Assembly: GCA_021780225.1 (NCBI GenBank)
Contig: JAJXZF010000040.1
Location: 30,919-94,918 of the forward strand
From: Deltaproteobacteria bacterium
GTDB taxonomy: Bacteria > Desulfobacterota > Binatia > Binatales > Binataceae
Direction of reading: 5' to 3'
DNA length: 64,000 nucleotides
The position numbers and the translations under genes were made by a program. The notes beneath the pieces are model-generated. The model ran no database searches and had not been told where the DNA came from. It worked only from the letters and a program-made list of their open reading frames with translations. Shown here one piece after another: positions 36,860 through 41,864 of this stretch (its first letter is position 1; each line of letters opens with the position of its first letter).

Positions 36860-37274
36860 GCGCCAATCGTACGATCCAGGCTGGCTCGACGCCGGGATCG
36901 GCTGGGCATCAGCCTCGGATACCGGTCCAAATTTATCCAAATCAGCCTGAAATAATTAAGAACCTGGATCGTCTATATTTCGAGGGCATTACGAAGCGTC
37001 TCTCAACCATGGTAGAGATCGTCCGACTTTCGCACTCATGGAGGTTGCGGCGCAAAACAGCATCAAAGCTTGAAATTGCAATAACATCAGTCTATAAAAT
37101 CTAGATAACAGCTGATTTTGAATCGTTTGACAAAATTTCGGATGTTTCGCCATGATTCGTGAGTTGTGGATAAAATCTGATGAAATGAGCTAGATTTCCT
37201 AGCAAATTTCGTTACATGGCTGCTAAAATGAGTGTTGATCACCATTCCTTAGGTTGAGCCAAAGAGGAGATAAC

Positions 37275-37526
37275 GTGGAAGAGAATCGGACAAAGAAACA
37301 CGGGGCGCATGGTTTGCCCCCAAAGGTCCTCACCGTTCGTGAGTTGTCGGAATATCTTCGGGTTCATCCGACGACCGTCTATCGGCTGCTCCGCGCGCGG
37401 CAGCTGCCGGGATTTCGAGTCGGCAGCGAATGGCGTTTCAGCATCGATATGATCGAGCGCTGGCGTTCCGAGGAAGAACAGTCGTCGGTCGAGATCAAGG
37501 CGCGGCGCGGCAAGCGAGCCGGCTGA
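37275..37526 (+). CDS. excisionase-family helix-turn-helix DNA-binding protein
   Basis: GTG 37275, 6 nt after AGGAG. HTH core LTVRELSEYLRVHPTTVYRLLRARQLPGFRVGSEWRF, MerR/excisionase-type. Paralog of the 60086-60292 gene. Confidence 0.7.
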   Translation: MEENRTKKHGAHGLPPKVLTVRELSEYLRVHPTTVYRLLRARQLPGFRVGSEWRFSIDMIERWRSEEEQSSVEIKARRGKRAG

Positions 37527-37780: not shown

Positions 37781-39430
37781 TTGCCGGATGATCATAAGTT
37801 GATCAAAACTGGCAACGCGATGATGTCCTCACCCGAAGCCGAACGCTTCCGCACCCTCTACGAGCTCGGCTGCGCCTTTTCGGCAAAGACGGAACTCGCC
37901 GAACTTGTTCCTTACGTGATCGAGAAATGCCGCGAGGCTTTGAATGCCGAAGCCGCTTCGGTCCTGATGCTCGATCGGGACCGCAATGAACTTTACTTTC
38001 CGTACGTGTCGGACTCGAACCAGGGCGTGGCCGACGTGTTGCGCAGCCTGCGGCTGCCGGCCGACAAGGGCATCGCCGGCGCGGCGTTGAACCATAATCA
38101 AACCATCGTCGTGAATGACGCTCAGAATGACGCGCGGCTTTACCGCGCGATCGATCGCCAGACCGGCGCCGTGACGCGCAGCCTTGTCGCCACGCCGCTG
38201 CAAGGCCGCAATGGCGTGATCGGCGTGCTTGAAATTCTCAATCGGCGCGGAAACGGGACCTTCGACAACAGCGATATCGCATTTCTCGAGGCGGTTTCGG
38301 AAAGCATCGCGATCGCGATCGAAAACGCCAGCCTCTACGCGCAGCTTCGCGACTCCGAAGCGATCCTGCGCACTCAAGTCGGCGCTTTGCGCCGCGATCT
38401 CGCCAAGAACGACCTCTTTACGGAAATCATCGGCTCGAGCGCGCCGATGTTTGAAGTATTCCAGCTCATGGAAGCGGCGGCCACGTCTTCGATCGCCGTA
38501 ATGATTCAGGGCGATACGGGAACCGGAAAGGAATTGGTCGCGCGCGGAATCCATCGCGCCAGCGCGCGGTGCGAGGCGCCGTTCGTCGCGGTCAATTGCG
38601 CGGCGATGCCGGAGACGCTGCTCGAAAGCGAATTGTTCGGGCATCGCAAAGGAGCCTTTACCGGCGCGATCCGGGACAACCCCGGCGTCTTTCGAGCCGC
38701 GTCGGGAGGCGTGGTTTTTCTCGATGAAGTCGCGGAAATGCCAGTTCGGATGCAGGCCAAGCTGCTGCGGGTTCTCGAACAGGAGGAAGTGATTCCGGTC
38801 GGCGAAACCTTTCCGGTGCGCGTCGATGTGAGAATCGTCTCGGCCACCAATCGCGACTTGAAGACGGAGATCGCCGCGGGCGCATTTCGGGAAGATCTCT
38901 ACTACCGGCTTGCGGCCTTCCCGATCCGGCTGCCTCCGCTGCGCGCCCGGCGGGAAGATATCGAATCGCTCGCGAGCCGTTTCCTGACCGTCTCCGCCGA
39001 ACGCCATCACAAGCGTCTGGCCGGTTTCGATCCCGCGGTGCTCGCGATCTTTTCCAACTACGATTGGCCGGGCAATGTGCGGCAGTTGCGCAATGAAATC
39101 GATCGCGCCGTCGCGATGGCGCGCGAGGGCGACACTATCGGCGTGCCTCAGCTCTCCCAGGATTTGCGAGCGGCTGCAAGCCATTCCGCGCCGATCAAAG
39201 CCGACGCCGCGACTGCGTCCGCGCCGGTCACAGCCGCCTCCGCCGCCGACGGCGTTGAGGGTCACGAGAGCCACACTCGTTCGCTACGGCAGGCGCGCGC
39301 GGAATTCGAAGCTGCTTTCATCAATGAGGCTCTGGCGCGCCATCACGGCAACGTCTCGCGCGCGGCGCAGGCGCTGGGGATTTCGCGCCCCGCGCTGCAA
39401 GAGAAGATAAAAACCTACCATCTCCGATAA
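37781..39430 (+). CDS. sigma-54-dependent transcriptional activator with N-terminal GAF domain (Fis-type C-terminal HTH)
   Basis: GAF domain, AAA+ domain with Walker A GDTGTGKE and GAFTGA motif, and C-terminal HTH. Alternative start ATG 37820. Confidence 0.88.
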   Translation: MPDDHKLIKTGNAMMSSPEAERFRTLYELGCAFSAKTELAELVPYVIEKCREALNAEAASVLMLDRDRNELYFPYVSDSNQGVADVLRSLRLPADKGIAGAALNHNQTIVVNDAQNDARLYRAIDRQTGAVTRSLVATPLQGRNGVIGVLEILNRRGNGTFDNSDIAFLEAVSESIAIAIENASLYAQLRDSEAILRTQVGALRRDLAKNDLFTEIIGSSAPMFEVFQLMEAAATSSIAVMIQGDTGTGKELVARGIHRASARCEAPFVAVNCAAMPETLLESELFGHRKGAFTGAIRDNPGVFRAASGGVVFLDEVAEMPVRMQAKLLRVLEQEEVIPVGETFPVRVDVRIVSATNRDLKTEIAAGAFREDLYYRLAAFPIRLPPLRARREDIESLASRFLTVSAERHHKRLAGFDPAVLAIFSNYDWPGNVRQLRNEIDRAVAMAREGDTIGVPQLSQDLRAAASHSAPIKADAATASAPVTAASAADGVEGHESHTRSLRQARAEFEAAFINEALARHHGNVSRAAQALGISRPALQEKIKTYHLR

Positions 39431-39462
39431 GTTTTCCGGCGGCGATCCGACGGAAAACTTTA
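39431..39462 (+). terminator. hairpin immediately after the sigma-54 activator stop
   Basis: GTTTTCCG-12 nt-CGGAAAAC followed by TTTACG. Confidence 0.4.
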
Positions 39463-39607
39463 CGCCAAGGCGATCGACGCCAATCGATTGGCGCTCGAAT
39501 GAACCAAACTATTCAGTCTTTTCAAACACTTAGAAAATAAACGCGGCCATCAGGCCGATGGCGCCCTAATTGCTCAATAAGTTTTCCCAGCAGCGGGGAG
39601 AAAACCA

Positions 39608-39916
39608 ATGACAATTCGGCGCGCCAGATTAGAACATCGGGGACCTGCACACGCGACTGGCCGACTATATCGTTCATCGCGGCGCCAGACCACGGACGTC
39701 GGCAACGCGATTTTGCGGATCGCCCGGCTTCGCTACGAAATTTTCCGGGAGCGGTTTGGCCGCGATCCTGAACCCGACGAACCCTTGTTTTTCGATGTCT
39801 CTCATGGCCGGCCAGTAATCGCGAATGAGACCGAAATGTTCCGACAGGTATCGGACGCGGCTTCTGCGACCCGCGCGGATTTCCTCTCGGTCGCCAAATT
39901 TCTTGGGCTCGGATAA
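39608..39916 (+). CDS. hypothetical small protein (102 aa), weak call
   Basis: GGGAGA 6 nt before the ATG. Non-repetitive composition. Located inside a palindrome-rich non-coding stretch. Confidence 0.3.
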   Translation: MTIRRARLEHRGPAHATGRLYRSSRRQTTDVGNAILRIARLRYEIFRERFGRDPEPDEPLFFDVSHGRPVIANETEMFRQVSDAASATRADFLSVAKFLGLG

Positions 39917-40101
39917 GGCGTCAGAGCGGCGGAATGGGTGAAGAGGGGGGCTCTGACGCGCCCATCCGGCTTTGAAGCCGGCGATAAACCTCCGGCGACG
40001 CCCGAAGCCTGCGTCCAAAACAGATAAAAACCAGACAAATAATTCGCCAAAGCCGGTCGGCGCGCCATTGACGGAATTACCCTGCCAGGTCCGTCGTGGC
40101 T

Positions 40102-40119
40102 GCCGGCCGGCGTCTTTTT
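40102..40119 (+). terminator. GC palindrome plus T-run (terminator-like) in the 39.9-40.3 kb non-coding stretch
   Basis: GCCGGCCGGC followed by GTCTTTTTA. Confidence 0.35.
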
Positions 40120-40335
40120 AATCCGTCCGGCTATTTGATATTGCGCGCCGGCCTCCGCGCTTGTCGGCGATTGGCCTAATCGCCTATGTAAAGGGATGCG
40201 CCGCGCGACACATACGCCGGGGCGCGAGTCCCAGGATCGCAACGCCTTCAATGGCGCCGCGCCGGAATATCGGCGACCCGCGCGAAGCCATCCGGTCGCG
40301 CGCGCAAATCATTCAACTCGGAGGAACTCAGGACA

Positions 40336-41100
40336 ATGGCAGGAATACTCGACGGCAAAGTGGCGATCATCACGGGCGCGGCATCGGGAATCGGACGCGC
40401 GACTTCGCTGATTTTCGCGCGCGAAGGAGCAAAGCTGCTGCTCGCCGACCTGCAGGAAGAGGGCGGCGCCGAAACGCTCAAAATGGTCAAGGCGGCCGGC
40501 GGCGACGCGACCTTCTTCAAGGTCGATGTCTCGAAATCGGCCGAAACCGAGGCGATGGTGGCAAAAGCGGTCGCGACCTACGGCAAGCTCGATTGCGCGT
40601 TCAACAACGCCGGTATCGACGGCAGGGGCGGCCGCGTGCACGAGTGCACCGAGGAGAACTGGAACCGCGTGATGTCGATCAATCTGACCGGCGTATGGCT
40701 CTGCATGAAGGCGGAGATCGCGCAGATGCTGAAGCAGGGCAAAGGCGGCGCGATCGTGAACACCTCTTCGGACGCGGGCCTGATTGGCGTCGCCGGATTG
40801 CCGGCCTATGTCGCGGCCAAGCACGGCGTCGCCGGACTGACCAAGGCGGCCGCGATGGAGTACGGACGGCACAATATCCGCGTCAATGCGGTCTGTCCGG
40901 GGCCGATCCGCACGCCGATGCTGGGCCGGTTGCTGAACGCGCGACCCGAGGCCGAATCCAAAATGGCGCGGTCGGAGCCGCTCAAGCGGCTCGGCGAGCC
41001 GTCGGAGATCGGCGAGGCGGTGGCGTGGCTCTGCTCGGACCGCGCCTCGTATGTGCACGGCTTGCCGATGCCGGTGGACGGCGGCTTCATGGCCCAGTAA
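40336..41100 (+). CDS. short-chain dehydrogenase/reductase (SDR), glucose-1-dehydrogenase/FabG-like
   Basis: TGAASGIG NAD-binding motif, NNAG, and the catalytic S...YVAAK triad; 254 aa. Confidence 0.9.
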   Translation: MAGILDGKVAIITGAASGIGRATSLIFAREGAKLLLADLQEEGGAETLKMVKAAGGDATFFKVDVSKSAETEAMVAKAVATYGKLDCAFNNAGIDGRGGRVHECTEENWNRVMSINLTGVWLCMKAEIAQMLKQGKGGAIVNTSSDAGLIGVAGLPAYVAAKHGVAGLTKAAAMEYGRHNIRVNAVCPGPIRTPMLGRLLNARPEAESKMARSEPLKRLGEPSEIGEAVAWLCSDRASYVHGLPMPVDGGFMAQ

Positions 41101-41282: not shown

Positions 41283-41864
41283 GTGGCCAGGATCGCGATT
41301 TTGATCGATGGCGGATGCCTGCGAACGCGCACCAAGCAGGCAAACCTTCAGTACGACCCGAATCATATCGAAGCCGTCGCGCTCAAATGCCCGCTGACTG
41401 ACGAAAATCTACTGCGTATTCTTTATTATGATTGCGCTCCATACGGAGGCAGCGTGAAACTGCCCGTGTCTGGAAAACCGCATACGTTTCCCGGCTCCGA
41501 CGCTTGGTTGAGGGAATTGGCGCGCAAAGATCTTTTCGCCGTGCGCCGAGGCGTGCTCAAATTCCGCGGCTTCGTGCCGAACAAGATACCACTTGCTTCG
41601 ACCCATTTGACCGATGCGGATTTCAAGCCCTCGTTTGAACAAAAAGGCGTCGATATGAGGATAGGTTTGGACATCGCGCAATACGCCAACGCGAAATCAG
41701 TTGAGCGAATTGTGCTGTTAACCGAAGACACTGATTGTGTCCCAGCGATGAAACACGCGCGTAAGGCGGGCTTGCAAGTCGTGTTGATATCGCTGCCGAA
41801 TTCTCATCTCGCGCCGGAACTCAGAGAGCACAGCGATTTCTTGCGATCCGTGGCATGGCCGTAA
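41283..41864 (+). CDS. NYN-domain (LabA-like PIN-fold) protein
   Basis: IAILIDGGCL N-terminus with a conserved Asp, and the GVDMRIGLDI and LLTEDTDCVP acidic blocks typical of NYN/LabA. Confidence 0.75.
   Translation: MARIAILIDGGCLRTRTKQANLQYDPNHIEAVALKCPLTDENLLRILYYDCAPYGGSVKLPVSGKPHTFPGSDAWLRELARKDLFAVRRGVLKFRGFVPNKIPLASTHLTDADFKPSFEQKGVDMRIGLDIAQYANAKSVERIVLLTEDTDCVPAMKHARKAGLQVVLISLPNSHLAPELREHSDFLRSVAWP

Follow-up and report, generated by a model that had tools for sequence, protein, structure and literature searches.

The interval between positions 39431 and 40335 of the analysed window (a stretch of 64,000 nucleotides to which all coordinates refer unless a related locus is named) is probably composed of well-known elements: an ordinary sigma-54 control region, the gene of a conserved small protein, a structured 3' UTR with its terminator and, behind it, a promoter-like block and leader of the next gene, an SDR. 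In the first-pass annotation the same interval was described as a candidate small-RNA or regulatory locus without strong open reading frames (ORFs), containing a single weak ORF of 102 amino acids. The regulatory half of this description holds true, whereas the stand-alone small RNA (sRNA) is not what we find and the 102-aa ORF is a real gene. The upstream third of the interval is organised by a sigma-54 -24/-12 promoter and an IHF-like site, both missing from that earlier description. The nearest relatives are MAGs labelled either Candidatus Binataceae or with the older name “Deltaproteobacteria”.

The small protein gene

The gene of the small protein occupies positions 39608–39916 on the forward strand and was characterised by its homologues, by dN/dS and by a structure model. 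A word-indexed search yielded 32 homologues of the 102-aa ORF, and a profile search with the small protein reached 656 clusters at 50% identity (E ≤ 1e-3). Towards orthologues with 73–88% identity dN/dS is only 0.10–0.13. With this number of homologues and a dN/dS of about 0.1 the ORF is a real gene under purifying selection. The family is held together by a core in which FRERFGRDPxPDxPLFFD is invariant. In the AlphaFold model residues 31–100 have pLDDT values above 90, and the modelled fold would consist of a long helix, a conserved proline/acidic loop and two short helices. The N-terminus is rich in arginine, predicted to be disordered and found on the 102-aa forms only. Neither sequence nor fold found a match in the PDB, and searches of Pfam, NCBIfam, PHROGs and PADLOC gave no match for this protein.

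Distant homologues of 150–165 aa were detected in Kitasatospora/Streptomyces and in Acidobacteriaceae (L048, 2812–3306; L050, 2845–3303). These proteins carry a C-terminal extension and no activator is encoded nearby, which means that the core domain has a life outside the cassette described below. To our knowledge actinobacteria have no sigma-54.

The activator gene and the conserved cassette

Directly upstream on the same strand (37781–39430) lies the gene of an enhancer-binding protein that is composed, according to Pfam, of a GAF sensor (GAF_2, 2.9e-17), a sigma-54 AAA+ domain (Sigma54_activat, 8.5e-68) and a Fis-type helix-turn-helix (HTH_8, 3.3e-12). The GAFTGA loop that contacts sigma-54 is encoded at 38651. 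In NCBIfam this activator reaches the cut-off of no named equivalog (NorR and NifA were among them). Of 32 Binataceae genome loci examined by tblastn, about 28 have an orthologue of the activator directly 5' of the small gene, on the same strand and ending 150–400 nt before it. The pairing persists in lineages that have a different, convergent gene downstream, and the SDR gene follows the small gene in the wider clade of the window only. Judged by this gene order, the activator gene and the small gene are kept together as a cassette. The recognition helices of the activator are nearly invariant across both the window subclade and its sister clade. No ORF with an RpoN box is present in the 64-kb window, and the presence of sigma-54 in the organism is assumed from the activator.

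In one metagenome contig (L080, 2–93) a tRNA-Ser gene takes the place of the activator 5' of the IHF-like site, the sigma-54 promoter and the small gene, so that the activator can apparently be unlinked from the small gene. In a distant lineage (L005–L007, about 700–1900) the activator gene is divergent from genes of a type III polyketide synthase (chalcone-synthase-like) and of a methyltransferase of the PEMT/ICMT family. Upstream of the activator gene in the window a gene for a 90-aa HTH_17 protein (excisionase/MerR-like) is located at 37254–37526, and L001–L004 carry other genes in this place. Just 5' of it, at 37000–37300, there is an island of low GC content (38–40% compared with about 60%). 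This zone may be the boundary of mobile or acquired DNA.

The sigma-54 control region

The -24/-12 promoter TGGCGCCCTAATTGCT was recognised on the forward strand at 39559–39574 by consensus match and by conservation. It agrees with the consensus TGGCAC-N5-TTGCW in 10 of 12 positions, has the exact GG-N10-GC spacing and ends 34 nt before the ATG of the small gene; the predicted start of transcription is at about 39585. A single -24/-12 site matching in at least 9 of 12 positions is found between activator stop and small-gene start in all analysed Binataceae loci save L034 and L040, in which no such site is recognisable. As background, 214 sites of this quality occur in the 798,654 nt compared, approximately one per 4 kb. 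A Shine–Dalgarno sequence, GGGGAG, can be read on the same strand at 39595–39600, 7 nt before the ATG, and a G-rich sequence of this kind is kept in the orthologues of the small gene.

Two further observations concern this part of the DNA. As a raw pattern count, TGGC-N7-TTGC occurs nine times in the whole window compared with 3.1 expected, a number reached by 2 of 100 shuffles. The direct repeat TAAGTTTTCC is found at 39428–39437 and again at 39578–39587, where it overlaps the predicted start site; this second copy and GGGGAGAAAAC could form a weak hairpin sequestering the Shine–Dalgarno sequence, which is kept in L012 and L017 and not in L001. The possible 5'-UTR hairpin (39582–39601) is not significant (-7.7 kcal/mol, z -1.6).

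Upstream of the promoter an AT-rich spacer contains an IHF-like site, TTTCAAACACTTA (39520–39532, forward strand), which matches 8 of the 9 specified positions of WATCAANNNNTTR. In 21 of 28 distinct loci a site of at least this quality precedes the -24 element by 37–41 nt; the background frequency is 2.3e-4 per position.

Farther upstream, centred about 100 bp before the predicted start, half-site conservation points to a candidate upstream activator sequence at 39459–39493. It comprises CTTTACG, GCCAAG and the palindrome CGCCAATCGATTGGCG, which is 16 bp long (39478–39493); the 14-bp palindrome GCCAATCGATTGGC reported earlier for 39479–39492 is its inner part. The earlier suggestion that this palindrome resembles the operator of a regulator is consistent with its conservation pattern. 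Within the window subclade CTTKRCG and GCCAA-N4-TTGGC are retained, and the centre of the palindrome varies between TCGA, GCGC, ATGA and TTTT (comparison with L012, L017 and L001) while the half-sites are kept. At the equivalent position, right after the activator stop codon, the sister clade has TTGGCA-N5-TGCCAA dyads of fixed spacing, followed by CTTGGCA and a GCCA-N5-TGGC element. TTGGC/GCCAA reaches a density of 13.2 per kb in these upstream regions against 3.2 per kb elsewhere, i.e. about fourfold. Since the recognition helices of the activator hardly differ between the subclades, the shared GCCAA/TTGGC half-sites, represented in the window by the 16-bp palindrome, appear to be the best candidate for its enhancer site. 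Their orientation is everted in the window (GCCAA-N4-TTGGC) if compared to the TTGGCA-N5-TGCCAA of the sister clade, and therefore binding of the activator at the window palindrome is not secure.

The first hairpin of the interval, GTTTTCCG...CGGAAAAC (39431–39458, forward strand), was defined by RNA folding and follows immediately after the stop codon of the activator gene. Its arms at 39431–39438 and 39451–39458 can be extended to 14 nt with 93% complementarity, and it folds with -17.0 kcal/mol (z -4.0); no U-tract comes after it. This hairpin is kept in the window subclade with an arm spacing of 15–20 nt and is missing from the sister clade, in which the HTH of the activator is nearly invariant. 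It was thus rejected as a binding site of the activator. The same variation in spacing and the absence from the sister clade make a 3' stem-loop likelier than an operator, so that 39431–39458 is probably a 3' stem-loop or a U-less terminator of the activator mRNA.

The 3' untranslated region

The segment 39917–40120 is best read as the 3' UTR of the small-gene mRNA. Two nucleotides past the stop codon it starts with the stem-loop GCGTCAGAGC/GCUCUGACGC (39918–39959, forward strand; -19.2 kcal/mol, z -2.9), defined by its fold and by conserved structure. The earlier annotation had this hairpin, GCGTCAGAGC/GCTCTGACGC, with a start that was off by one; its arms are at 39918–39927 and 39950–39959. 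The loop ends in a conserved purine motif, AAGAGGGGG (39941–39949). Seven of eight orthologues of the window subclade adopt the same fold with the same loop motif by means of four unrelated stem sequences; the stem co-varies and the loop that it encloses is conserved. Each locus has a single copy of the motif, invariably on the forward strand and downstream of the small gene, and there is one copy in the 64-kb window, where pattern searches revealed no convincing second copy either of this motif or of the palindromes.

In the sister clade the motif is directly followed by a long hairpin, CCGCGUCG...CGACGCGG, which shows some compensatory changes. A search of about 284 kb with a covariance model of this sister-clade element gave matches solely downstream of the small gene and none in the window, which means that only the loop motif is shared and not the topology. 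More distant loci without SDR gene (L029, L033, L037, L081 and L083) also have a G-rich motif and a hairpin after the stop codon; the 3' element is consequently assigned to the small gene rather than to the SDR gene. Two other interpretations of this element were discarded. The motif AAGAGGGGG could be taken for the Shine–Dalgarno sequence of a hidden small ORF, but no conserved start codon comes after it. An alternative stem, CGGAAUGGGUG/CGCCCAUCCG, in which 39929–39940 pairs with 39960–39969, overlaps the GCGTCAGAGC hairpin, and a pseudoknot of both (39918–27/39950–59 with 39929–40/39960–69) would have loops of 2, 9 and 0 nt that do not fit the H-type; hence the two stems are treated as alternative structures. 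The alternative stem resembles the upper stem AUGGGGUG/CCCCAUCC of the sister-clade element.

The middle 90 nt of the 3' UTR are not conserved. They include the small hairpin CCGGCU-uuga-AGCCGG (39966–39981, forward strand; -9.6 kcal/mol, z -1.9, defined by fold), the sequence of which is not kept in L017, L012 and L001. The 3' end is formed by an intrinsic terminator (40052–40119, forward strand) with a stem of 22 pairs (40052–40111) followed by GUCUUUUU, which was detected by a terminator scan and by folding (-42.1 kcal/mol, z -4.5). Across five orthologues 94.5% of the cells of this stem are paired, and three pairs show compensatory change; the U-run after the stem is weaker in the relatives, with three U. 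The palindrome GCCGGCCGGC (40102–40111) with the following GTCTTTTT up to 40119 had already been called terminator-like, and terminator scan, fold energy and conserved pairing agree that it is part of a good terminator.

In some close relatives the small gene is separated from its downstream neighbour by an additional ORF of 169 aa (L013, 1108–1617; L014, 1447–1956), this neighbour being the SDR gene in L014 and a gene with sulfotransferase domain in L013. This ORF lies downstream of the AAGAGGGGG hairpin, whose motif is degenerate in L013 (TGAGAGGAC).

Alternative readings of the palindromes

All inverted repeats listed in the first-pass annotation are present at or within one base of the given coordinates, CCGGCT-ttga-AGCCGG at 39966–39981 among them. 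Its description of the region as palindrome-rich is right insofar as the 905 nt contain three perfect inverted repeats whose stems measure 8 bp or more, where first-order Markov simulations give 0.69 ± 0.81. However, 7 of 200 simulations reach three, and 12 of 70 tiles of the same size in the 64-kb window contain three or more, which makes the palindrome richness weakly unusual. This modest excess, together with the lack of significance of both the CCGGCT hairpin and the 5'-UTR hairpin, would suit an explanation of the repeats as chance features or as members of a genome-wide REP-like family without specific role. Such an explanation is nevertheless hardly credible. Among the five structures, three occupy a conserved position (the CCGGCT hairpin is none of these), two of them with compensatory change, no palindrome family is seen within the 64 kb, and no further copies were found in about 280 kb of related loci.

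The earlier annotation also held an sRNA of about 200 nt (39917–40120) plausible, here taken as a stand-alone, trans-acting RNA that would run from the GCGTCAGAGC hairpin to the terminator. This segment indeed begins with a conserved stem-loop with invariant loop motif, ends in a conserved terminator, folds as a whole better than its shuffles (z -2.9) and contains no conserved ORF. We nonetheless regard an independent sRNA gene as unlikely. The stop codon of a genuine, equally oriented gene lies 2 nt ahead of the segment, whose middle 90 nt lack conservation. No promoter-like site was found for it: a scan for consensus promoters detected no sigma-70-like promoter in 39200–40500, and the lone sigma-54 site precedes the ORF. 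Rfam did not offer support either, as a permissive scan of 39200–40500 gave no match with an E value below 3.9, i.e. chance-level matches alone, and a scan of four orthologous loci at gathering scores gave none. From the mRNA 3' UTR, which we prefer as reading of this segment, a processed sRNA may still be derived. About as improbable as an independent sRNA gene is the assignment of the palindromes at 39431–39458 and 39479–39492 to another dimeric regulator of the repressor type, e.g. the HTH_17 protein (37254–37526). Dimeric HTH regulators typically have perfect palindromes of 14–16 bp as binding sites, the everted order of the half-sites is unlike the dyads of the sister clade and the HTH_17 gene is located only 0.25 kb upstream of the activator gene. 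But the half-sites match those repeated 5' of the same promoter in all orthologues, where the activator HTH is nearly invariant, and the HTH_17 gene is not constant in its place, since L001–L004 carry other genes there. The position around -100 and the IHF-like site, moreover, suit an enhancer, and an enhancer of the adjacent activator is the reading that we follow here.

The promoter-like block and leader of the SDR gene

Upstream of the SDR gene the block CTTGTCG-N16-CCTATGTA (40160–40190, forward strand) was noticed by its conservation. It is found in nearly every locus in which an SDR gene comes after the small gene, with the far element degenerate in L078 and L013, and it is presumably the promoter of the SDR gene. 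As the block fails the criteria of the sigma-70 scan, conservation is the sole evidence for this promoter. The following leader (40191–40335, forward strand) is partly conserved in alignments of the orthologous spacers, and its blocks GAGTCCCAGG (40226–40235) and CCGGAATATC (40262–40271) recur in nearly all orthologous loci. The leader has no match in Rfam; with these blocks it could represent either a leader RNA or sites for regulators. Downstream of the SDR gene an ORF of 193 aa (41283–41864) encodes an NYN (RNase-like) domain; at its position L001–L003 have a gene of 153 aa for which no Pfam match was recorded.

Proposed mechanism and significance

We propose that 39431–39607 contains a sigma-54-dependent promoter together with its control elements. 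Sites of the GCCAA/TTGGC type about 100 bp upstream would be bound by the neighbouring enhancer-binding protein with its GAF domain, and the AT-rich spacer at 39520–39532 would be bent by an IHF-like protein, two steps which we infer from the conserved motifs. With its GAFTGA loop the activator would remodel the sigma-54 holoenzyme that is closed on TGGCGC-N5-TTGCT (39559–39574), and transcription should begin near 39585. The transcript would code for a conserved 102-aa protein (39608–39916), predicted to be cytoplasmic and helical, whose gene is the one constant neighbour of the activator across Binataceae and its probable target. Positions 39917–40119 would form the 3' UTR of this mRNA, which opens with the AAGAGGGGG stem-loop and closes with the long conserved terminator hairpin and its U-run. 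The remaining 40160–40335 would be part of the next gene, the SDR, and equip it with its own conserved promoter-like block and leader.

The regulatory architecture predicted here is of the textbook NifA/NtrC/XylR type and the kind of unit is already known. A more far-reaching interpretation is conceivable, although we consider it doubtful. Activator and small protein would then represent a hitherto undescribed sigma-54 signalling cassette, self-contained and belonging to the uncultured Binatota, in which the protein (84–102 aa, no PDB fold match) would serve as dedicated output or feedback partner. The 3' element of the mRNA, i.e. the AAGAGGGGG purine loop beside a co-varying stem, would be new and either bound by a protein (possibly by the Arg-rich N-terminus) or set free as a regulatory RNA derived from the 3' UTR.

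The phylum Binatota is uncultured (PMC8262859). In a literature search we found no published work on sigma-54 regulation in this phylum. Here, an apparent non-coding oddity becomes an annotated regulatory unit of a phylum without cultured member, with a predicted transcript start and end, a candidate activator motif (TTGGCA/TGCCAA half-sites) and a conserved IHF-like site. Additionally, a small-protein family of 656 clusters (at 50% identity) is presented, whose expression is likely to be coupled to an activator with GAF sensor. For annotation in general this means that “weak” ORFs of about 100 aa beside enhancer-binding proteins merit a scan for -24/-12 elements, and for RNA biologists the AAGAGGGGG loop motif offers a modest yet tangible starting point.

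Comparison with known systems

Classical sigma-54 promoters that depend on an enhancer and an IHF bend are those of NifA/nifH, NtrC/glnHp2 and XylR/Pu; an IHF site between enhancer and promoter is frequent in such systems but not obligatory. The region described here shares with them the -24 GG / -12 GC element of fixed spacing, a GAFTGA-bearing AAA+ activator ending in a Fis-type HTH and, as far as motifs can tell, dyad candidate activator sites about 100–150 bp upstream with an IHF consensus site in between. In contrast with NifA, NtrC and XylR, the activator of the window has a GAF domain and stands outside the named equivalog families, its half-site (TTGGCA/TGCCAA-like) is deduced from conservation alone, and of the genes around it one small gene alone is constant, which is also the probable target.

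Regarding RNA, LuxO-qrr1, a sigma-54-dependent small RNA gene beside the gene of its activator, is the closest precedent for an sRNA at this locus. In both cases a short sigma-54-dependent unit with strong terminator adjoins an activator gene, but the transcript of the window encodes a protein under purifying selection and matches neither Qrr nor any other Rfam family. Regulatory RNAs embedded in 3' UTRs are represented by CpxQ, SroC and DapZ. As in these, a conserved and structured 3' UTR makes use of the terminator of the mRNA; unlike them, the element of the window consists of a purine-rich loop beside a stem and has a stem topology that differs between subclades.

In PspF-pspA and HrpS-hrpV, finally, an enhancer-binding protein is subject to feedback from a partner protein whose expression depends on sigma-54. 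The small protein has no similarity to PspA or HrpV in sequence or fold, so that the likeness is one of analogy only, and it is pure conjecture that it might interact with its activator in the manner of PspA and PspF. The genes in the window are furthermore arranged in tandem and not divergently. What the systems have in common is that the gene of an enhancer-binding protein adjoins the gene, driven (in the window by prediction) by sigma-54, of a small, helical and non-enzymatic protein, and that such a pair is retained as a cassette amid changing neighbours.
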